Source: Mycobacteriales bacterium
Lineage (GTDB): Bacteria; Actinomycetota; Actinomycetes; Mycobacteriales; SCTD01
Length of the DNA stretch: 64,000 bases
Reading direction: 5' to 3'
Assembly: GCA_030447385.1 (NCBI GenBank)
Contig: JAUJOY010000006.1
Location: 77,405 to 141,404, forward strand
In this document: positions 1,115 to 32,684 of the stretch, piece by piece
How positions within the stretch are numbered: position 1 is the stretch's first letter
Layout of the letters: each line of letters opens with the position of its first letter
The notes under the pieces: generated by a model
The model's database searches: none
Told to the model about the DNA's origin: nothing
Seen by the model: the letters and a program-made list of their open reading frames with translations, nothing else
Made by a program: the position numbers and the translations under genes

Positions 1115-2809
1115 TCAGACAGCGCAGTTGTAGACGAGCGGCAGGGAGCCGTCCGCCCGGCGAAGGGTGAGGAAGCGCTCGACCGCGAGCCGCTTGCCCT
1201 CGGCCAGGGACACCGGGCTGTCCGGAGAGGGATGCGCGGCCAGCAGCATGTCCGGGCTGGTCTCCACGTCGGCTCCCGCGGGGTGCCAGTGCACCCCGTC
1301 GGCGGTGTAGGCCAGCTCGGGAACCGTGTTGCCCTCTCCGATCTCCGCCCCGGAGGTGGAGAACCCGCGTTGCACCAGGGGCCGCACCGCGAAGTCCTTG
1401 CCGACGATGCCCATCTGCGTGAGCAGCTCGCGCAGCGGCTCGACCTCGCGGGCGTTCTGCGGCGTCTCGGTCATGCCGACGCGCACCGGAAGCCCCATCT
1501 CCACGGCCAGCTTCAGCCCGTCCATCGCCTTCTGCCACGAGCCCCGCCCGCGGTTCTCGTCGTGCCGCGGAGGCGACGCCGCGTCGATGGAGGTCTGCAG
1601 CACGAGCCGGTCCCGGCCGGCGAGGCGCTGCAGCTGCTCGAGCCGCCAGCCCTGGTAGAGCATCCCGTTGGTGAGGAGGACGACGTCGAGGCGCTCGGTC
1701 GCGTACAGCACCATCTCGACGATGTCGGGCTCGAGGAAGGGCTCACCGCCGGTCAGGTAGATCTCGGAGAACCCCTCCATGACGGCCTCGTCGACGAGGG
1801 ACTTGACCCGCCCGAGGCCGAGGGAGCGCTTCCGGGCCTGCGGGCTGCTGGCGACCGAGCAGTAGGAGCAGGCGAGGTTGCAGTGGAAGTTGGTGTAGAG
1901 CCACAGCCGCGGCGGAAACATCGGCGAGCCGAACAGCGGCACCACCGGCAGCCCGTCGTCGACCACCTCCGGCGCGTCGGCCCACGAGACCGCCTCCTGC
2001 TCGAAGCCCGAGGGCAGGGCCGACCGGTAGAGCTGGTAGCGGCCCTTGCTGCGCTCGTACGGCGGGACGATCTCCAGGCAGGTCGTCCACCAGCCGGTCT
2101 CGACGGTCTCCACGAAGGCCTCGGGGAGGCCACCGGCGCGCATGGACGCGGCCTGCGCCTCCCAGTCGTAGGCGAGCGGGACCAGCTCGGCGCCGACGCT
2201 GCCCGCGTCGAGGTCGACCAGCGCGTACCAGACCTCGCGGCGGCCGTCGTTGGCCGGCCGGCCGAGCACGCCGACGTTGACGACCAGGCTGTCGCCCACC
2301 TGCTTCTGCCAGGGCAGTCCCGAGTGCGTGCACAGGATGAGGTCCGCGCCCGACTCCTGGACCCGCAGCGCGTGCTGCTCGTCCGACAGCGACTCCCACC
2401 AGAAGTCGTTCAGGGCGAGCGTCGACCCGTGGACCATGTGCACGTCGACGCCGTCGAGGCAGAACCGGCGCTCGGTCGGCAGGGTCGTCATCCACTGCGC
2501 GTAGTCGCGGCCCGTGTGGGCGAGCGTGTAGTCGTACATCAACTGGGCGAACTCGTTGTCGCGCGGGTCGGAGTAGCCGCAGCCGCAGTCGGTGTCCCCC
2601 CGGCCGACCGCGACGTCGTAGTTGCCGGCCACGACGGTCACGTCGGCGTCGGTCAACAGCGGCCAGACCGCGTCCGGCTCAGCGCCGTAACCCCCGAGAT
2701 CTCCGAGACAGTAGAGCTTCTCAGCTCCACGGGCCCTCGCGTCGTCCAGGAAGGCCTGCAGCGCGTAGGGGTTGGAGTAGACGCCTCCACACACCGCGAT
2801 GCGGGTCAT
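1115..2809 (-). CDS. Metallophosphoesterase-like domain fused to a radical SAM domain
   Basis: N-terminal half has LGDLGGYG, GNYD, HGS, THSG and NVG motifs. C-terminal half has CNLACSYC (CxxxCxxC), TGGEP and LLTNG. ATG at 2809 is preceded by GGAG. Confidence 0.85.
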   Translation of the reverse strand: MTRIAVCGGVYSNPYALQAFLDDARARGAEKLYCLGDLGGYGAEPDAVWPLLTDADVTVVAGNYDVAVGRGDTDCGCGYSDPRDNEFAQLMYDYTLAHTGRDYAQWMTTLPTERRFCLDGVDVHMVHGSTLALNDFWWESLSDEQHALRVQESGADLILCTHSGLPWQKQVGDSLVVNVGVLGRPANDGRREVWYALVDLDAGSVGAELVPLAYDWEAQAASMRAGGLPEAFVETVETGWWTTCLEIVPPYERSKGRYQLYRSALPSGFEQEAVSWADAPEVVDDGLPVVPLFGSPMFPPRLWLYTNFHCNLACSYCSVASSPQARKRSLGLGRVKSLVDEAVMEGFSEIYLTGGEPFLEPDIVEMVLYATERLDVVLLTNGMLYQGWRLEQLQRLAGRDRLVLQTSIDAASPPRHDENRGRGSWQKAMDGLKLAVEMGLPVRVGMTETPQNAREVEPLRELLTQMGIVGKDFAVRPLVQRGFSTSGAEIGEGNTVPELAYTADGVHWHPAGADVETSPDMLLAAHPSPDSPVSLAEGKRLAVERFLTLRRADGSLPLVYNCAV

Positions 2810-2876
2810 GATCTCCACAGCCGGGTCATGCAGCACGCCCTCCAGGATCAACGGTGGTGCATGACCCTAGCGCGGG

Positions 2877-4283
2877 TCAGGCCTCCAGGCGGCTCACCAC
2901 GTGCTTGACCCGGGTGTAGTCACGCAGCGAGTACGACGACAGGTCGCTGCCGAACCCGGACGAGGCGTAGCCGCCGTGCGGCATCTCGGTGGCGAGCACC
3001 GAGTGGCAGTTGATCCACACGGCGCCGAAGCCGAGCGTGCGGGCGGCGCGCATCGCGCGGCCGTGGTCGGTCGTCCAGACGCTCGCCGCGAGGCCGTACG
3101 TCGTGTCGTTGGCGACCGCGAGCGCCTCCGCCTCGTCCACGACCCGCTGGAGGGTGATCACCGGGCCGAAGACCTCGTCGGTGGCGAGCTCGTCGCCGCT
3201 CCGAACCCCGCTGACGACAGTGGGCGGGTAGTAGAAGCCCTCTCGCGCCATCGGGCTCCCCCCGGTGAGCACGGCGGTGTGGGCCCCGCGCCGGTCGACC
3301 ATGCCGGCGACCCTGGCGAGCTGGTCGGGGTTGTTGAGCGCCCCGAAGTAGCCGTCGGGGCCTACCGGCATCGCCGCGGCCCCCGCGGCGAGGCGGGCGG
3401 CGAGCTCGTCGTGGATGCCGGGTGTGGCGAGCACCTTGCTCGCGGCCGTGCACGACTGCCCGGCGTTGTAGAAGCCGATGTCCAGCAGCCCCTGCACCGT
3501 CTGCTCGAGGTCGGCGTCGTCGAACACCAGCACCGGCGCCTTGCCGCCGAGCTCGAGGTGCAGGCGCTTCACCGTCGGCGCGGCGGCGGCCATGACGGCG
3601 CGACCCGCGCGCACGGATCCGGTCAGGGCCACCAGCGCCGGGACGGGATGCGCCACCATCGCCTGCCCGGTCTCGCGGCCGCCGCAGACGACGTTGAGCA
3701 CCCCGGCCGGCAGCACCCGCGCGGCGAGCTCGGCCAGCATCAGCGGGGTGACCGGTGTCGTCTCGGCGGACTTGAGGACCACCGTGTTTCCGGCGGCCAC
3801 GGCGGGTGCCCACTTCCAGGTGGCCATCATCAGCGGGTAGTTCCACGGCGTGATCTGGGCGATCACCCCGAGCGGCTCGCGGCGCAGCACCGAGGTGTGG
3901 CCGACCGCGTACTCGCCGGCGGCGAGGCCCTCGGGGACTCGCGCAGCGCCTGCGCTGAAACGCACCACGTCGACGATGTGCGGGATCTCCGCGAGCATCG
4001 CGGCCCGCGGCTTGCCGGTGTTGCGGCACTCCGCGTCGACGAGCCCCTCCGCCTCCTGCTCGATCAGGTCGGCAAGGCGCAGCAGCAGGCGCGACCGCAC
4101 GGCCGGCGTGTGCTCCCGCCAGGTGTGGAAGGCCTCGGCCGCACTGGCGAACGCCGCATCGAGGTCGGCGGGTCCGGCGATGGCTGCGTCCTCGTACGCC
4201 AGACCCGTTGCCGGGTCGACGATCGGTGTCGTCGCGTCGGACAGCGGGGGCCGCGCGGATCCCCCGTAGAAGTGCGTCAGCAT
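2877..4283 (-). CDS. NAD-dependent aldehyde dehydrogenase (gamma-aminobutyraldehyde dehydrogenase-like)
   Basis: PWNYP, LELGGKAP, NAGQSC (catalytic Cys) and EVFGPV motifs. Start uncertain (4283 or 4334). Confidence 0.9.
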   Translation of the reverse strand: MLTHFYGGSARPPLSDATTPIVDPATGLAYEDAAIAGPADLDAAFASAAEAFHTWREHTPAVRSRLLLRLADLIEQEAEGLVDAECRNTGKPRAAMLAEIPHIVDVVRFSAGAARVPEGLAAGEYAVGHTSVLRREPLGVIAQITPWNYPLMMATWKWAPAVAAGNTVVLKSAETTPVTPLMLAELAARVLPAGVLNVVCGGRETGQAMVAHPVPALVALTGSVRAGRAVMAAAAPTVKRLHLELGGKAPVLVFDDADLEQTVQGLLDIGFYNAGQSCTAASKVLATPGIHDELAARLAAGAAAMPVGPDGYFGALNNPDQLARVAGMVDRRGAHTAVLTGGSPMAREGFYYPPTVVSGVRSGDELATDEVFGPVITLQRVVDEAEALAVANDTTYGLAASVWTTDHGRAMRAARTLGFGAVWINCHSVLATEMPHGGYASSGFGSDLSSYSLRDYTRVKHVVSRLEA

Positions 4284-4363
4284 CGGGTCGACAGTAGGCA
4301 ACGAGCGGTGCCGGCGCTCGAGGCCGAGTGTCATCAGGCGCCTGGTCCGCCGGCGACGGAGCC

Positions 4364-5830
4364 TCAGAAGGGCGGTTCGTCGTCCGCGGTCGGCGGCGGC
4401 AGCGCGCGCTCGCCGTGCGGGTCGGCCTCGGGCTCGGCCGCGGGCTTGGCGGGCCGCAGGTCGGTGGCGAGGAGGGGTCGTGGTGCCTGTCCCACGGGTG
4501 GTGGTCGTCGTGGTGGGGGTTCGGCGTCCGGGTCGACCCGTGGTGGTGGGGCGTGCGGGCTGGGTCGGGTGTAGGTCCGCCCGAGGGGCTGGTCCAGGTG
4601 GTGCTGCCGTCAAGGTGGCGCACGAGGGCCCAGTCGGTGTGCTTGGCGGCGTGGCAGCGCGCGGAGAGCAGCCCGAGGTTCCACGCGGCGGTCGGGCCTT
4701 CTGGCCAGGGGATCAGGTGGTCGCGGTGGGTGCGGGTCGAGCCGCACCCGGGTGCGGCGCAGCGCACGTCCCGCAGGTCGACCAGGCGGGCGAGGGCGGC
4801 GGACGGGTCGTGCTGCGGCTCCGCCCGGTCGGTGATCACCTCGGGCCGGTTCATCCTGAGGATCTGCTCCCGCAACCCGGATCGGGTCGGGACTGGCAGG
4901 TTCTGGACGGTCCTGCACGTGCAACGGCCGGCCGGTCTCCTCGTCGATGAGCACCCGGCGCAGCAGGGTGGGGCGCAGCAACCGGACGTGCTCAGCGGTG
5001 AGCGGACCGTAGCGGTCCATCATGCCGGGTTCGCGGGACAGCTCCAGCACGGTGCTCATCGGCACGAGCACGTTGAGCACCACCTGCGGGCGCACCTCGA
5101 CACTGGAACCTGCCACCCAACCCGGGACCGCGCCGTCTTGGGCGGCGAGGACCATCGCCGGGAGGGCGGCGAACAGGTCCGCCCGGCGCTGCTGCGCGGT
5201 GCGCTCCACCCCCGCCTGCCGGTCGCAGATGCGCTCCTTCTTCTCCAGGGTGTCCAGACCGGAGCTCCAGCTGGCCAGCTGCTCCGCGGTCAGCACCGCC
5301 CCGGCCAGTCCCAGCCCGTCCGGCTCTGGGCGGTGAGACGTGTGCCGCCCGGCGGCGGCATCGGCGTGGCGTTGCTCCGCCGCTGCTGGACTGTCCTGCT
5401 CGGCCTCGATCCGCAGCAGCGTGCGGGACACCAGCCGGCGCAGATCCGCCGGGCACAGCAGTGCCCCGTCGGGGAGCACCTCCGCCTCGACCTTCGCCGC
5501 GCGATCTCCTGCGGAGCGTGGGAGGTGACGTGCAGCAGCACCGCGGCCTGCGCAGTCAGCAGCTCCCCGCGCTCGAGCATCCCCAACGTCACCGGCAACG
5601 CCGCATACCGCTCGGCCTCATCCAGCCAACGGGACGCGGTCAGCTGGCCGACCCGCAACGACCCGGCGACCTCCAACGGCAAGAACCGCCGGGTGCCGTC
5701 CGTCCCGCTCAACGCGGCCAGGCGCACCACCGCCCGGATCCGCGAGCCCAGCTGCCGGGCGTCCGCCCGAAGGCTGTCCAGCCAGCCGTCCAGCAACGGC
5801 GTTCGACTCCGCCTCCGACGTGCTGGACAT
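4364..5830 (-). pseudogene. DUF222 (REP13E12-like)-HNH endonuclease element, frameshifted
   Basis: Pieces lie in different frames (5290-5796, 4610-5479, from 4875). HNH segment RCAAPGC...DHLIPWPEGPTAAWNLGLLSARCH; the C-terminus ends EPPF-stop at 4364. Confidence 0.8.
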
Positions 5831-5837
5831 GAGGTAA

Positions 5838-5853
5838 TCGTACATGTGTTCGA
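5838..5853 (-). promoter_or_regulatory. LexA (SOS)-like box inside a putative leaderless sigma70 promoter of the DUF222-HNH element
   Basis: Minus strand TCGAAC-ACAT-GTACGA, one mismatch to actinobacterial TCGAAC-N4-GTTCGA. TAGACA(5865-5860)-N17-TACGAT(5842-5837), then 6 nt to ATG 5830. Confidence 0.7.
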
Positions 5854-5878
5854 ACGCCCTGTCTATCGGAATCGACTT

Positions 5879-5914
5879 CTCCACAGCCTCTTTCGCCGGA
5901 ACGAGGCTGTGGAG
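5879..5914. repeat. Perfect 12-bp inverted repeat
   Basis: CTCCACAGCCTC-N12-GAGGCTGTGGAG. Confidence 0.85.
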
Positions 5915-5919
5915 CGGCC

Positions 5920-6135
5920 GGCGTGGGCAGCGGCTGGAGCTGGGTCGGGTTCGGGCTGAGGCCGGGGGGTCGGGCTGAGGCAGGGGCTGGGACTGGGCAG
6001 GGGTCGGGCTGAGGCAGGGGCTCGAGCTGGGGCGGGCGCTCGGCCTGCGGCCCGGGCTCGGCCTGCGGCCGGGGCTGAAGCGGGGACTGGCTGGGGCTCA
6101 GGGAAAGGAACGCTCCCCACCACCCTCCACCCCGA
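5920..6135. repeat. Low-complexity G-rich degenerate repeats
   Basis: Recurring GGGTCGGGCTGAGGC and GGCCTGCGGCC units. Confidence 0.6.
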
Positions 6136-20448: not shown

Positions 20449-21051
20449 GTGACCGAGGTGGAGACCAGCGAGCAGCGGCGGGCCCGCTTCGAGCGCGACG
20501 CGCTGCCCTTCCTGGACCAGCTGTACTCCGCGGCCTTGCGCATGACGCGCAACCCTGCGGACGCCGAGGACCTGGTGCAGGAGACGTTCGTGAAGGCGTT
20601 CGCGGCGTTCCACCAGTTCCAGGAGGGCACCAACCTCAAGGCGTGGCTCTACCGGATCCTCACCAACACGTTCATCAACACCTACCGCAAGAAGCAGCGC
20701 CAGCCGCTGCAGAGCCCGACCGACGAGATCACCGACTGGCAGATCGCGGCCGCCGAGGCCCACACCAGCTCCGGCCTGCGCAGCGCCGAGACCGAGGCGC
20801 TCGACCACCTGCCCGACTCCGACGTCAAGGAGGCCCTGCAGGCGCTGCCCGAGGACTTCCGGATGGCCGTCTACCTGGCCGACGTCGAGGGCTTCGCCTA
20901 CAAGGAGATCGCCGAGATCATGGGCACTCCGATCGGCACGGTGATGAGCCGCCTGCACCGCGGACGACGCGGTCTGCGCACGCTGCTGGCCGACTACGCC
21001 GTCGAGCGGGGCCTGGTGAAGGCGAGCACCGGAGCGGGGGAGACGCCATGA
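20449..21051 (+). CDS. sigH: ECF sigma factor SigH/SigR
   Basis: [33 protein letters not shown]; sits before an anti-sigma. A possible longer in-frame start exists at 20254. Confidence 0.95.
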
Positions 21052-21332
21052 GCTGCGGCGAGCCGCACGAGATGCCGTGCAGCGAGGTGCTCGAGGCCGT
21101 CTACCTCTACCTCGACGGCGAGCAGGACGACCACCACCACGACAAGGTCCGCCTCCACCTGGACGAGTGCGCGCCGTGCCTTCGGCAGTACGGCCTGGAG
21201 CAGGCCGTCAAGTCCCTGGTCGCCCGTTGCTGCGGCAGCGACCCCGCACCGCTCGACCTGCGCGACCGCGTGCTCGTCCGGATCCAGCAGGTACGCCTCG
21301 AGATCGAGCAGGTTGAGTACCGCGCCGAGTAG
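21048..21332 (+). CDS. rshA: ZAS anti-sigma factor RshA/RsrA
   Basis: [15 protein letters not shown]...HLDECAPC (HxxxCxxC). Confidence 0.93.
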
Positions 21333-27765: not shown

Positions 27766-28428
27766 TCAGGACGTACGCCGCCCGTGCTCGCTGCAGTCGG
27801 CCGACCACCCGGTCGGCGTGACCTGCACGACCATCCGGCGCCGGCAGTGCAGGCAGTAGCGGGGCGGGTCGAGCTCCGCGCTGCGCCGGCACGCCTCGTG
27901 CCCCTCCACCGTCAGCTCGCGCCCGCAGTGGCCGCACCAGGGCGCGAGCGGCAGCGCGAAGGCCTCCAGCAGCAGCCCGGGGACGAGGAACCAGTCCAGC
28001 GAGGGCGTCCGGACGAAGCCCAGCCGGGCGTAGAGGCGGTGCGCCGCCGTCATGTTGGTCTGGGAGGACAGGCGGACCATCGCGCAGCCGTCCTGACGGG
28101 CCAGCTCGAGAGCAGCCCGCACCAGGGCTTCGCCGACCCGCACGCCGCGGGCCTCCGGAGCAACCGCCAGCATGCGGATCACGGCCTCGCCGGGGACCGC
28201 CAGCTCGGCCAGCGGCCCGCCTCGGGTCGCCACCGCGAGCGAGCCCACGAGCTGCTCGCGCAGGAGCGCCACCAGCACCGTCGACTGCTCGGCCCGCCCG
28301 GTGACGTCGCGCAGCTGCGGCTCGTAGTCGAGCGAGGTCAAGCCCTCGCCGATGTAGACCGAGGCGGTGAGCTCGGCCACCGCCGCATGCTCAACTGGGG
28401 CGATCTCCCGGACTGTGACGCACATCAC
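27766..28428 (-). CDS. GNAT acetyltransferase fused to a BsaP-like (biotin synthase auxiliary protein) domain
   Basis: GNAT motif [18 protein letters not shown]-terminal WCGHCG...[31 protein letters not shown] resembles Rv1590/BsaP as I recall it. Confidence 0.8.
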
Positions 28429-28496
28429 TGCGCGCCTCCAAACGATCTAACCTAACGCCCGCATCAGAGTGCGTCAAGGATGGTACAGACGTCGAC

Positions 28497-28580
28497 ATGC
28501 TTCCCTCCCTCAGTTGGCCCGGCCTGCTGTTCTCCGTGGTCCTGTCCTTCGTCCTCGTCCTGGTGCTCGGGCTCCTCTAG
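28497..28580 (+). CDS. Putative 27-aa single-helix membrane peptide
   Basis: MLPSLSWPGLLFSVVLSFVLVLVLGLL-stop; its TAG overlaps the tag stop in CTAG; codons are GC3-rich. Confidence 0.45.
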   Translation: MLPSLSWPGLLFSVVLSFVLVLVLGLL

Positions 28581-29155
28581 CCGGCCGGGTGCTCCGCGGG
28601 CCGCACCCCGGCCCGCAACGCCTCGACCTCGCCGCGGACCGGGCACTGCACCAGGTGGTCGTTGACCAGCCCGCAGGCCTGCATCAGCGCGTACACCGTC
28701 GTCGGGCCGACGAAGGTGAAGCCCCGGCGGCGCATCTCGCGCGCGAGCACCGCTGACGCCGCCGTGTGCGCCGGCACACCGGCCGGCGCCGTGGGGGCCG
28801 GGCCGGGCAGCGGCGCGATCGACCACAGCAGCGCCGGCAGGCCCCCGTCCGCCCGCAGCGCCACCGTGGCGGCCGCGTTGGTGACGCAGGCCCGCAGCTT
28901 GGCCCGCGACCGGATCAGCCGGGCGTCGAGCAGCAGCGGCTCCACGTCGAGCCCGGCCACCGCCTCGGGGTCGAAGCCGGCGAACACCTCCCGCAGCGCC
29001 TCGCGCTTGCGCAGCACGGTGATCCACGCGAGCCCGGCCTGGAAGCCCTCCAGGCAGATCCGCTCGTACAGCGCCTGCTCCGTGACCTGCGGACGGCCCC
29101 ACTCGAGGTCGTGGTAGCGCTCGTACAGCGGGTCGCCCTCCCCGAAGCACCGCAC
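28577..29155 (-). CDS. tag: DNA-3-methyladenine glycosylase I
   Basis: RC...YHDLEWG, LEGFQAGLAW, GFTFVGPTTVYALMQACGLVNDH...C. Confidence 0.93.
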   Translation of the reverse strand: MRCFGEGDPLYERYHDLEWGRPQVTEQALYERICLEGFQAGLAWITVLRKREALREVFAGFDPEAVAGLDVEPLLLDARLIRSRAKLRACVTNAAATVALRADGGLPALLWSIAPLPGPAPTAPAGVPAHTAASAVLAREMRRRGFTFVGPTTVYALMQACGLVNDHLVQCPVRGEVEALRAGVRPAEHPAG

Positions 29156-29168
29156 CGCCGCCGCCGGG

Positions 29169-30170
29169 TCAGATCGTGGAGCGCAGCGCCGAGATCGGCA
29201 TGCGGAGGTCCTGCAGCATCTCCAGGTCCTCCGCCGCAGGGCGCCCCAGCGTGGTCAGGTAGTTGCCGACGATCAGGGCGTTGATGCCGCCGAGCATCCC
29301 GTCCCGGGCGAGATCCCCGAGTGTGATCTCCCGCCCGCCGGCGAACCGCAGGACCGTGCGGGGCAGCGTCAGGCGGAAGACGGCGATCGCCCGCAGCGCG
29401 TCCTCGGGACGCAGAACCGGCAGGTCGCCGAACGGCGTGCCGGGCCGGGGGTTGAGGAAGTTCAGCGGCACCTCGTCCGGGTCCAGCTCGGCCAGCTCCA
29501 CGGCGAACTCCGCTCGCTGCTCCAGCGTCTCGCCCATCCCGAGGATGCCGCCGCAGCACACCTGCATCCCGGCCGCCCAGACCATCCGCAGGGTCTCGTG
29601 CCGCTCCTCCCACGTGTGCGTCGTGACCACCTGCGGGAAGTACGAGCGCGCCGTCTCGAGGTTGTGGTTGTAGCGGTGCACGCCGAGGTCGCGCAGGGCA
29701 GCCACCTGCTGGGACGTGAGCATCCCCAGCGAGCAGGCGATGTCGATGTCCACCGCCTCGCGGATCGCCCGGATGCCCGCCTCGACCTGGGCCATGAGCC
29801 TGGCGTCGGGCCCGCGTACGGCCGCCACGATGCAGAACTCGCTCGCACCCGTGGCGCGGGTCTCGACAGCCGCCCGGACGAGGGAGTCGACGTCGAGCAG
29901 TGCGGCGCGCACCGGGCTCGGGAACAGCCCCGACTGGCTGCAGAAGTGGCAGTCCTCCACGCAGCCGCCGGTCTTGAGGCTGACGATGCCCTCGACCTCG
30001 ACCTGGGGGCCGCAGTGCCGCAGGCGCACCTCGTGGGCGAGCTGGAGCAGCTCCGGCAGGTGGCAGTCGGGCAGCAGCAGGGCGGCCAGGGCCTGCTGCT
30101 TCGCGAGCCCCACCCCCCGCTCGAGGACCTGCTCCCTCGCGACGCCCAGGATGTCGCTGCTGCCGGTCAC
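29169..30170 (-). CDS. bioB: Biotin synthase
   Basis: [53 protein letters not shown]. Confidence 0.95.
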
Positions 30171-30268: not shown

Positions 30269-30622
30269 GTGGGGCCAGACCCGAAGGAGGCTGCTGTGCA
30301 CGCTCTTTCCACATGGGCCGACGAGGCCGCGTTCCACGCGGCGGATCCTCGTCGCCGGTTCTCCTTCGAGGTCGACCTCGGCGCCACCTGGCGCCGGGAG
30401 GGCTCCAACGACGCGTGGCGGCTCGCGTGGCTGCGCGAGACCGGCGAGCTGTACGTCTGCCGCGCCGACGGCTACGACGGCTCGTGCACGGACGTGTCGG
30501 TGCTGGCGCTCGTCCCCCGGGAGCGGGACCTCGACGCGATGCTCGCCGGGTGGCGGGAGCACCGCGTCCACCCGGACGGGCTGTCGTGGGTGGTTCGCCG
30601 CACTGCACCGGTCGCCGCCTAG
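30269..30622 (+). CDS. Hypothetical protein
   Basis: Coherent ORF divergent from bioB and co-directional with pdtaS. Confidence 0.55.
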
Positions 30623-30680: not shown

Positions 30681-32201
30681 GTGTCGACGCTGGCAGACCT
30701 GCTCCGGGCCCGTACGGCCCTCGAGGAGGAGGACGTCGACTGGCTGCAGCGGCTGGTGGGGGAGTGGCAGCTGGTAGCTGACCTGTCCTTCGCGGACCTG
30801 GTCCTGCACGTCCGCACCCGCGAGAGCTCCTGGCTGACCGTCGCGCACATGCGCCCCACGACCGGGCCCACTGCCCATCCGCTGGACGTGGTGGGCACCG
30901 ATCTCCCGGTCGGTGAGGTGCCGCGCTTCGAGCGCGCCGTCCGTGAGGGGCGGATCCTCGGCGAGCCCGAGCCGGGCTCGGCGGAGCGGCTCGCGGCCCG
31001 CCAGGAGGTCGTCCCGGTCCGTCGCGGCCCGCACGTCGTGGCCGTGCTCACCCGGGAGACGCCCGTGTCGGTGGCCCGCATGCCCAGTGCCCTCGAGCTC
31101 ACCTACCTGACCACCGCGAACGAGCTGCTGCAGATGGTGAGCGAGGGGCTGTTTCCCTTCCCCGGCTCGGTGCCCGACGCGGAGCACGCCCCCCGCGTCG
31201 GCGACGGCCTGCTGCGCCTGGACCGGACCGGGCACGTGGTCTACGCCAGCCCGAACGCGCTGTCGGCCTACCGGCGCCTGGGCGTCAGCGGAGACCTGCT
31301 CGGCGCGCACCTCGGCTCGACCATCGCCCGCCTCAGCGCCGGCCCCGGCCTGCTCGACGAGCCCCGGGGGTCGGCTGCGCTCGCGGCCGTGCTGCGCTTC
31401 GGCGAGCCGCGGGAGTCCGAGGTGGAGGCTCGGGGCGCCACGGTCCTGCTGCGGGCGCTGCCGCTCCACCCGGGCGGCGAGCCGCGGGGGGCCCTGCTCC
31501 TGGTCCGCGACGTGACCGAGCTGCGCAGCCGGGACCGTCAGCTCCTGGGCAAGGACGCCACCATCCGCGAGATCCACCACCGCGTGAAGAACAACCTGCA
31601 GACCGTCGCCGCGCTGCTACGGCTGCAGGCCCGGCGCATGCAGGTGCCCCAGGCCCGCGCGGCGCTGGAGGACTCGGTGCGCCGGGTCGCCTCGATCGCG
31701 CTGGTCCACGAGACGCTCTCGCAGGCCTGGGAGGCCGGAGTGCCCTTCGACGAGATCGCCGACCGGGTGCTGGCGATGTGCGCCGAGGTGGCGGCTCCGG
31801 AGTCCTCGGTGGCCGTACGCCGCACCGGCAGCTTCGGCGAGCTCCCGGCGGAGGTGGCCACGCCGCTGGCCATGGCGCTCACCGAGCTCGTGCAGAACGC
31901 CGTGGAGCACGGGTTCCCCGAGACCGGGGATGGCACCCGTGCAGGCACGATCGCGGTGCGGGCCACGCGCAGAGAGGCCGACCTGCACGTCGAGGTGGTC
32001 GACGACGGGGTCGGGCTGCCCGCCGGCTTCGACCTCGGTGCGACCAGCCAGCTCGGGCTGCAGATCGTGCGCACGCTCGTGTCCGCCGAGCTCCGTGGCT
32101 CCTTGGTCCTCACCGCCGGGGCGGGTGGCCGCGGGACCAGGGCCGTCGTGGATGTGCCGCTCGCTCCCGAACTCAGCGCAGGAGCAGGGGTAGCGCGCTG
32201 A
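30681..32201 (+). CDS. pdtaS: Cytosolic sensor histidine kinase PdtaS
   Basis: [15 protein letters not shown]-domain, PAS region, [26 protein letters not shown]. Confidence 0.92.
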
Positions 32202-32400
32202 GCTCCGGGGCGTGGCGCCCGAGCGAGTTGAGTCCCGGGTCCTGCGAGGCGGTTTCGGACAGAGCCTGGAAGGCCAGGAAGAGCCCGCCGAGCAGCAGGG
32301 CCATGACCACCAGGCCCAGCAGCCGGAACCGCCACACCGCCCGCCACCGCGGCGGGAGCTCGCGGGCCAGCAGGGGCGGTCGGACGTAGCGGTCAGCCAT
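32173..32400 (-). CDS. Small membrane protein
   Basis: MADRYVRPPL... with one hydrophobic helix; downstream of whiB1. Confidence 0.55.
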   Translation of the reverse strand: MADRYVRPPLLARELPPRWRAVWRFRLLGLVVMALLLGGLFLAFQALSETASQDPGLNSLGRHAPELSALPLLLR

Positions 32401-32432
32401 GCCGGGCCGGGTAGCGCCGGATGCCGCCGACC

Positions 32433-32684
32433 TCAGGCGCTCGGAGCGTGCGCGCGACCCGCCTGGCGCCGCAGCACGCGCCGCTCGTCCTCGCTCGTGC
32501 CGCCCCAGACGCCGGCCTCCTGCGCCGTGTCGAGCGCCCAGCCCAGGCACGGTTCCACGACGGGGCAGCGCCGGCAGACCACTTTGGCCTCGGCGACCTG
32601 GGATGCCGCGGGCCCGGTCGTCCCGATGGGGAAGAACAGCTCAGGGTCCTCGTCGCGGCAGAGCGCTGCGTGGCGCCAGTCCAT
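32433..32684 (-). CDS. whiB1: WhiB family regulator WhiB1/WblE
   Basis: MDWRHAALCRDEDPELFFPIG...CRRC...C...GVWGG; adjacent to pdtaS. Confidence 0.93.
   Translation of the reverse strand: MDWRHAALCRDEDPELFFPIGTTGPAASQVAEAKVVCRRCPVVEPCLGWALDTAQEAGVWGGTSEDERRVLRRQAGRAHAPSA

Follow-up and report, generated by a model that had tools for sequence, protein, structure and literature searches.

The locus

The 64,000-nt stretch analysed here (henceforth the window, in whose numbering all coordinates are given) belongs to contig JAUJOY010000006.1 of the genome of an uncultured soil actinobacterium of the Mycobacteriales (GCA_030447385.1). It holds a gene whose predicted product joins an acyltransferase of the GNAT superfamily to a C-terminal module resembling BsaP, the protein (Rv1590) that mycobacterial BioB requires (PMC11099021). 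bioB itself lies 740 nt upstream of this fusion gene and tag is positioned between the two, starting 13 nt past the bioB stop and separated from the fusion open reading frame (ORF) by a gap of 148 nt; all three genes are on the - strand (Table 1). Public data call the fusion coding sequence from the ATG at 28425, which gives a protein of 219 amino acids (aa). The tag product scores 200 bits with TIGR00624, under that model's cut-off of 232.5.

A first-pass annotation of the window had placed bioB and tag upstream on the same strand, had seen the last ~60 residues continue the GNAT frame and had recognised them as BsaP-like. The ORF list bears out the first two of these points and the profile search described below the third. 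The same annotation had tag separating the fusion from bioB, which is right as far as it goes; tag is not the sole separator, since a conserved 27-codon ORF on the opposite strand also lies between them.

Table 1. Features between the fusion gene and the region upstream of bioB (window coordinates)
Feature	Position	Strand	Remarks
bioB	29169-30170	-	GTG start at 30170; TIGR00433, 357 bits (cut-off 225)
tag (DNA-3-methyladenine glycosylase I)	28577-29155	-	Pfam Adenine_glyco PF03352, 192 bits
GNAT-BsaP fusion coding sequence	27766-28428	-	220 aa from GTG 28428; stop 27766-27768
GNAT module (predicted acyl-CoA N-acyltransferase fold)	27946-28428	-	residues 1-161; PF00583, PF13508
BsaP module	27781-27939	-	residues 164-216; NF052237 profile 1-53 of 53
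Divergent intergenic region	28429-28496	.	putative expression signals of the fusion gene, read from sequence
27-codon hydrophobic ORF	28497-28580	+	between tag and fusion gene
117-aa ORF	30269-30622	+	between bioB and pdtaS-like kinase gene, divergent from bioB

The BsaP module and its junction

The C-terminal segment W164-G216 (WCGHCG...CSEHG) matches the NCBIfam equivalog biotin_BsaP, NF052237, over its entire profile, with 87.1 bits against a cut-off of 39 and an E value of 5.6e-25. When the genome (3.4 Mb, 100% complete) is searched in six frames with the same profile, the BsaP domain of the fusion is the sole match, at 89.9 bits. The module offers eight candidate metal ligands, C165, C168, H177, C180, C192, C195, C212 and H215. 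Of these, C192, C195 and C212 have a spacing (C-x2-C-x16-C) identical to that of the cysteines C44, C47 and C64 highlighted in the M. tuberculosis protein (BsaP.tb; PMC11099021). In the 120 listed fused homologues that are introduced below, C192 and C212 never vary and C195 is conserved to at least 90%; the three cysteines are 96-99% conserved across the best 150 of 295 BsaP cluster representatives, and at the 36 conserved BsaP columns the window sequence shows no deviation at all. The C-terminal 57 residues are a genuine BsaP, a small, cysteine-rich and probably iron-sulfur (Fe-S)-binding auxiliary protein on which actinobacterial BioB enzymes with Ala in place of Cys128 depend for turning dethiobiotin into biotin. 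A stand-alone BsaP measures ~60-150 aa, and here the module closes a protein of 220 aa; the stand-alone state is typical of BsaP rather than defining, a BioB-BsaP fusion of Pseudonocardia having already been reported (PMC11099021, Fig. 6c). A sequence search of the PDB returned nothing matching the BsaP part.

The GNAT domain (approximately residues 6-160) shares its reading frame with the BsaP domain, and the ORF has no stop codon between them. Neither is there an in-frame ATG, GTG or TTG between M126 and V174, the nearest in-frame starts: the former lies inside the GNAT domain and the latter is past the invariant C165-x2-C168 pair. A complete BsaP domain can therefore not be made independently. 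AlphaFold2, run on an alignment of 120 sequences, folds the protein as one rigid two-domain body with virtually no linker (predicted local distance difference test (pLDDT) 95.2, predicted TM score (pTM) 0.90).

The acyltransferase module

The N-terminal 160 residues are predicted to form a GNAT-fold, acyl-CoA-dependent acyltransferase, whose last beta strand ends ...EAFALPL. PF00583 (Acetyltransf_1) matches residues 44-138 with 56 bits (gathering threshold 20.7), and PF13508 is found at 48 bits (threshold 27). The top 50 Foldseek matches are all GNATs of a generic kind, at 13-23% identity, and provide no functional assignment. None of the curated NCBIfam GNAT equivalogs is reached, the best score being 33.5 bits against a cut-off of 142. 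JGI annotation names many of the homologues RimI; that identity was considered and rejected, TIGR01575 giving 29.1 bits against a cut-off of 86.4, and 'RimI-like' is a generic label.

Residues Y133, H130, R94 and G99 are invariant among the 120 listed fused proteins. Motif A of the GNAT superfamily, the acetyl-CoA pyrophosphate-binding loop, has the pattern R/Q-x-x-G-x-G/A; the relatives have R-G-x-G-x-G and the window protein R94-G95-V96-R97-V98-G99, Gly97 being at least 90% conserved elsewhere. This is one of several departures: the window GNAT is the most deviant of the 120, differing at 10 of the 80 columns in which the 119 homologues show at least 90% conservation (median 1), with G97R (codon 28138-28140), W73L and Q76L among the differences. 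The GNAT of this lineage may be under relaxed or shifted constraint while its BsaP tail is fully maintained. Across the clade, the ratio of nonsynonymous to synonymous substitution (dN/dS; NG86, 36 fused genes) is ~0.5 for the GNAT domain and 0.43 for BsaP, with dS saturated and biased by GC content at third codon positions; neither module appears to be obviously decaying, and the saturated dS allows nothing further to be read from these values.

Conservation of the fusion

A search of 5.8 billion proteins provided a list of 120 homologues (64-87% identity to the window protein). P0001, a database protein of 219 aa, is 100% identical, and the 119 further listed proteins share its architecture. 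Nearly all are 215-226 aa long. Their alignments span 95-100% of the query in most cases and 90-93% in four. With a single exception they combine GNAT Pfam domains with PF26519, which is evidently Pfam's BsaP-domain family. Within the order, six or more GTDB families have the fused form (numbered here f1, the family of the window, f4, f9, f11, f13 and f16), and the junction peptides differ. From the side of BsaP, a survey of 1.84 billion representatives produced 295 BsaP clusters at 50% identity; among the best 150, which were examined, 12 cluster representatives are GNAT-BsaP proteins and 131 are no longer than 150 aa.

Could the fusion be an error of assembly or sequencing in this genome, a frameshift or a lost stop? 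A single indel error easily merges overlapping genes of high GC content, and some of the relatives known from long-read metagenome-assembled genomes (MAGs) do have obvious frameshifts (locus L054, for example). However, the in-frame junction recurs in the 120 listed database sequences, which are independent of one another, and in genomes that number in the dozens and were obtained by different studies on different sequencing platforms. It is, moreover, gapless in a 21-sequence alignment in which L159, L161 and W164 are invariant, and L159 is invariant over all 120 listed homologues. On the strength of this conserved junction the artefact hypothesis was dropped, its probability being close to nil: the fusion is real and conserved.

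One relative (G144) has two divergent fused GNAT-BsaP loci, on contigs C49 and C96 (L106 and L107), each accompanied by tag, pilT and pepP. This MAG is 90% complete with 1% contamination, and its double locus may reflect either a duplication or the mixing of two strains.

BioB and its partner

BioB proteins that depend on BsaP have five listed changes, in E. coli numbering S43E, R95E, C128A, Y149R and S218E (PMC11099021). A HMMER alignment of the window BioB with E. coli BioB (1R30) places Glu opposite S43, R95 and S218, Ala opposite C128 and Arg opposite Y149. With all five signature changes in this BioB, and with the fusion's tail as the only BsaP of the genome, the likeliest client of the BsaP module is the BioB encoded upstream; family membership, co-occurrence and the BioB signature are the grounds for this reading.

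The co-occurrence was counted in 78 genomes of f1. Both bioB and BsaP are present in 53 and neither in 14; the 11 discordant genomes are all less than 90% complete. The 21 high-quality genomes divide into 19 with both and 2 with neither, and none has BsaP only or bioB only (Fisher p = 3e-7 for all genomes and 0.005 for the high-quality set).

Eight conserved Cys and His ligands would suffice for two metal sites, and one might suppose that the tail no longer serves BioB at all, having been recruited by the acetyltransferase as a zinc-ribbon-like or Fe-S metal-binding accessory domain that might, for instance, help to recognise the substrate or exert redox control. The rigid association with the GNAT in the structural model is in keeping with such a role. 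So is the state of the basic patch R49, R63 and R66 that has been proposed to dock BsaP.tb on BioB (PMC11099021): mapped by cysteine spacing only, its equivalents are R197, which is present, D211 and E214. (Position 211 is R in most relatives and D in the window; position 214 is E in at least 90% of the fused clade.) Against recruitment, the tail is confined to genomes with bioB, it is the one BsaP of a genome whose BioB has the BsaP-dependent signature, and its NF052237 score is as high as those of stand-alone BsaPs. We regard recruitment as very improbable.

At codons A165-C166 of the window bioB (29674-29679), the Ala at the position of E. coli Cys128 is directly followed by Cys (I-A-C-S-L-G). 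This A-C pair is found in 34 of 42 BsaP-linked BioBs sampled; f14 and f7 have A-A, which is also what has been reported for M. tuberculosis BioB in the Cys128 region. The best PDB sequence match of the window BioB is 8vdw, with C-C at these positions, and not E. coli 1R30. The Cys next to the Ala could be an alternative cluster ligand.

The 14 of 78 f1 genomes that lack bioB and BsaP include members of the window's own genus (G001, G006, G009, G010, G091 and G246 are among the 14). They are likely to represent biotin auxotrophs among close relatives of a prototroph.

Separable modules, split genes and the origin of the fusion

In six syntenic genomes with only the GNAT and no BsaP tail, bioB was not found genome-wide. 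The tail-less GNAT ORFs end at seven different points (in seven sequences), just after ...YALPL and often abutting pilT. Seven differing end points imply that BsaP tails were deleted independently, with the GNAT preserved each time, and that the loss of bioB and BsaP was repeated. The converse is also seen: in six f1 genomes bioB is accompanied by a stand-alone bsaP, in the same position before pilT, and the locus has no GNAT gene; a genome-wide search of three of them (G182, G227 and G266) found no match of GNAT strength (best E about 1e-17). One genome has the mycobacterial bioB-bsaP arrangement, and in one the GNAT gene and bsaP are 1.4 kb apart. All five f18 genomes (at least 99% complete) have the GNAT and no BsaP; in f17 and f12, bioB-bsaP is at another locus, unlinked to the GNAT. 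Since bioB and bsaP occur without the GNAT, and the GNAT without both, BsaP and BioB do not need the GNAT, nor does it need them.

The relatives of the window are uncultured 'Frankiales/Mycobacteriales' MAGs with the gene order bioB-tag-(variable insert)-GNAT_BsaP-<pilT-<pepP. The order bioB-tag-...-GNAT_BsaP is conserved in f1; in f16 tag is not at this place and bioB abuts the fusion gene. In sister families the two modules are separate genes in an operon bioB-GNAT-bsaP: this split form is found in f14 (Cryptosporangiaceae, including cultured Cryptosporangium), f7 and f11, and also in a single genome of f1. In the split form 8-31 nt separate the GNAT stop from the first BsaP cysteine codon downstream, and the bsaP start overlaps or abuts that stop, 0-2 codons away; in one f14 genome a lone in-frame TGA separates GNAT from bsaP. 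On a tree of the GNAT domain, at least five changes of the fused/split character are required, and one fused and one split gene are sisters within a single genus. Recurrent changes together with coupled split neighbours make the fusion a recurrent and easily made merger.

A simple course of events can be proposed. The GNAT stop codon would have been lost and the gene merged with bsaP; with the split-form stop overlapping or abutting the bsaP start, a single indel or stop-to-sense change would join the two, and such a merger would have happened, or been reverted, several times in the order. The fusion should give 1:1 co-production of GNAT and BsaP and would be tolerated because the N-terminus of BsaP can be extended; GNAT activity is probably dispensable for biotin synthase function. 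We consider it probable that the BsaP module serves BioB and that neighbouring genes, coupled in translation, have merged more than once to give the fusion. The first-pass annotation had offered two interpretations, a link of biotin synthesis to acetyl-CoA status or protein acylation and a fortuitous but functional fusion: with split but coupled genes, and with modules that can be had separately, the second fits better and the first less well. It had also called the fusion novel. The architecture is indeed absent from the BsaP paper, but the survey makes it a large family and not a one-off.

The acetyltransferase in a biotin-related neighbourhood

Several points weigh against this account. The rigid, linker-free model suggests two modules adapted to each other. 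D211 and E214 stand where, by cysteine spacing only, the putative BioB-docking residues R63 and R66 of BsaP.tb map. Several families keep the order bioB-GNAT-bsaP, in which the GNAT is central and not at the edge, and the fusions recur and are maintained by selection, beyond what mere accident would lead one to expect. The constant neighbours of the GNAT gene are biotin-related, namely a BCCP-like TB7.3 gene, a biotin-carboxylase-like gene, bioB and bsaP. Finally, the role of either module in this lineage is read from sequence.

The neighbourhood in question, whiB1-pdtaS-[bioB]-GNAT-[bsaP]-TB7.3-like small biotinyl protein-(biotin-carboxylase-like gene)-rshA-sigH, is conserved across eight or more families, for example at 2068-6078 of locus L058 and in L008, and the GNAT has long been established in it. 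The window has sigH and rshA at about 20.5-21.3 kb (20542-21296), and pdtaS and whiB at 30.7-32.7 kb (30700-32684). In f18 the TB7.3-like gene is preceded by a 389-aa biotin-carboxylase-like gene whose ATP-grasp N-terminus is degenerate (VLVAGRGPAA).

Further fusion partners of BsaP are a BioD-like AAA_26 domain, class-I methyltransferases (possibly BioC-like), a BioA-type aminotransferase (a fragment) and a BioF-type aminotransferase (P0256, P0285, P0294, P0332 and P0388); the searched papers do not describe these BioD-like, methyltransferase, BioA and BioF fusions. Except for the GNAT, each identified BsaP partner is a biotin-pathway enzyme, the methyltransferase plausibly being one.

A biotin-related role of the GNAT, which the biotin-themed neighbourhood and the recurrent fusions keep open, is an unlikely prospect though one to be kept in mind. 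In its more explicit form, the GNAT would be a working part of biotin metabolism, acylating BioB, BsaP or TB7.3 or protecting them from deacylation, acting on a pathway amine such as diaminopelargonic acid (DAPA) or ketoaminopelargonic acid (KAPA), or sensing acyl-CoA, with the fusion coupling its activity to BioB-BsaP. There is a fair amount to be said for this: the translationally coupled bioB-GNAT-bsaP operon of f14, f7 and f11, the five or more fusion or fission events with fused forms kept in six families, the rigid model, the biotin-pathway identity of all other fusion partners found, the catalytic-type residues invariant in the fused family (Y133, H130, R94 and G99), and the fact that the GNAT is always beside a small biotinyl-domain protein, with or without bsaP. 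On the other hand, in six f1 genomes the locus has bioB and bsaP but lacks a GNAT (three of them with no GNAT-strength match anywhere), the GNAT outlasts the loss of bioB and BsaP through seven differently ended deletions, f18 has it without BsaP, and f17 and f12 have bioB-bsaP unlinked to it. Mycobacterial BioB-BsaP, furthermore, works in vitro without any GNAT (PMC11099021), and it is the GNAT of the window that is the most divergent of the 120, with G97R in its CoA-pyrophosphate loop, while the BsaP part is unchanged. Taken together these points leave the working-part proposal doubtful. Slightly more doubtful is the extended version, according to which the GNAT would be an unrecognised component of actinobacterial biotin metabolism that acts on BioB-BsaP, TB7.3 or a pathway amine, the recurrent fusion being the 'Rosetta stone' of a physical complex of GNAT, BsaP and BioB through which sulfur insertion would depend on acyl-CoA status.

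Expression and a small opposite-strand ORF

The fusion gene and bioB-tag probably belong to separate transcripts; the 27-codon ORF lies between them on the opposite strand. In the 68-nt divergent region a candidate promoter can be picked out by eye and with low confidence (TTGACG at 28477-28472, a spacing of 17 nt and TAGGTT at 28454-28449); a consensus promoter scan of the same region found no sigma-70-type match. A candidate ribosome-binding site, GGAGG (28439-28435), lies 6 nt before the GTG. The window has no match, with up to one mismatch, to the BioQ-type operator TGAAC-N3-GTTCA, and a comparison of the regions upstream of the fusion gene and of bioB revealed neither a common sequence nor a shared palindrome, so that nothing in these searches points to co-regulation.

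The 27-codon ORF, convergent with tag and divergent from the fusion gene, encodes the peptide MLPSLSWPGLLFSVVLSFVLVLVLGLL. Similar peptides (...PSLLLS.VVT.VLLLLLGVL) are encoded in 18 related loci, directly beside tag and on the opposite strand wherever tag is on the contig, and the ORF is syntenic in 19 of the fetched loci. The ORF is a candidate for a conserved single-helix membrane micro-protein.

Significance and comparison with known systems

BsaP was discovered only in 2024, and its mutants were unstable. A GNAT-fused BsaP that is naturally stabilised, rigid and confidently modelled may be a better-behaved BsaP for structural and biochemical work, and the close relatives would provide a natural series of comparative controls (fused, split, BsaP alone and GNAT alone). 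That BsaP fuses with whichever neighbour it has (BioB, BioD, BioF, BioA, the methyltransferase or the GNAT) suggests that its N-terminus is free in the complex with BioB, and this would constrain docking models. Public annotation of the fused proteins says only 'GNAT/RimI-like', so that genome-based calls of BsaP presence and of biotin prototrophy miss the fused forms. The conserved operon beside a biotinyl protein, for its part, gives a widespread, uncharacterised GNAT family a biotin-related hypothesis in cultured Cryptosporangium.

The GNAT-BsaP protein is not mentioned in the searched papers, and the BsaP paper reports only the BioB-BsaP fusion (PMC11099021). GNAT-BsaP is a new domain arrangement for an auxiliary protein that was itself described only recently; it was most likely made by ordinary gene fusion within an operon. 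With Rv1590 of M. tuberculosis and M. smegmatis (PMC11099021, NF052237) the window module shares the full-length model match, the C-x2-C-x16-C triad, a single copy per genome and the proximity of a bioB with Ala at E. coli Cys128 and the four other signature changes. It differs in that Rv1590 is a stand-alone protein of ~80 aa encoded directly after bioB, whereas the window BsaP ends a 220-aa GNAT protein, with tag and the small ORF intervening; in its acidic D211 and E214, where Rv1590 has, by cysteine spacing, R63 and R66; and in an additional invariant N-terminal C-x2-C...H-x2-C, which is present in only about 60-70% of BsaP clusters.

The Pseudonocardia BioB-BsaP resembles the window protein in having BsaP at the C-terminus of a larger protein encoded by the upstream neighbour, and it likewise indicates that BsaP tolerates an N-terminal extension; its partner, however, is the client enzyme BioB and not a GNAT with no known role in biotin synthesis. 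Generic small GNATs (RimI-like, YncA/phosphinothricin-type and PA4794) have the GNAT fold in common with the window protein (Foldseek TM 0.6-0.8 on the target), and motif A with its relatives; they differ in sequence (13-23% identity) and in the window's R-G-V-R-V-G in place of the relatives' R-G-x-G-x-G. The split operon of Cryptosporangiaceae (Cryptosporangium minutisporangium, for example), f7 and f11 has an orthologous GNAT (42-51% identity) together with BsaP in the same order, on the same strand and in the same neighbourhood next to TB7.3-rshA-sigH. It differs from the window locus in consisting of two genes, with the GNAT ending in ...YTRKL* or a similar tail, the bsaP start overlapping or abutting it, and no tag between bioB and the GNAT.

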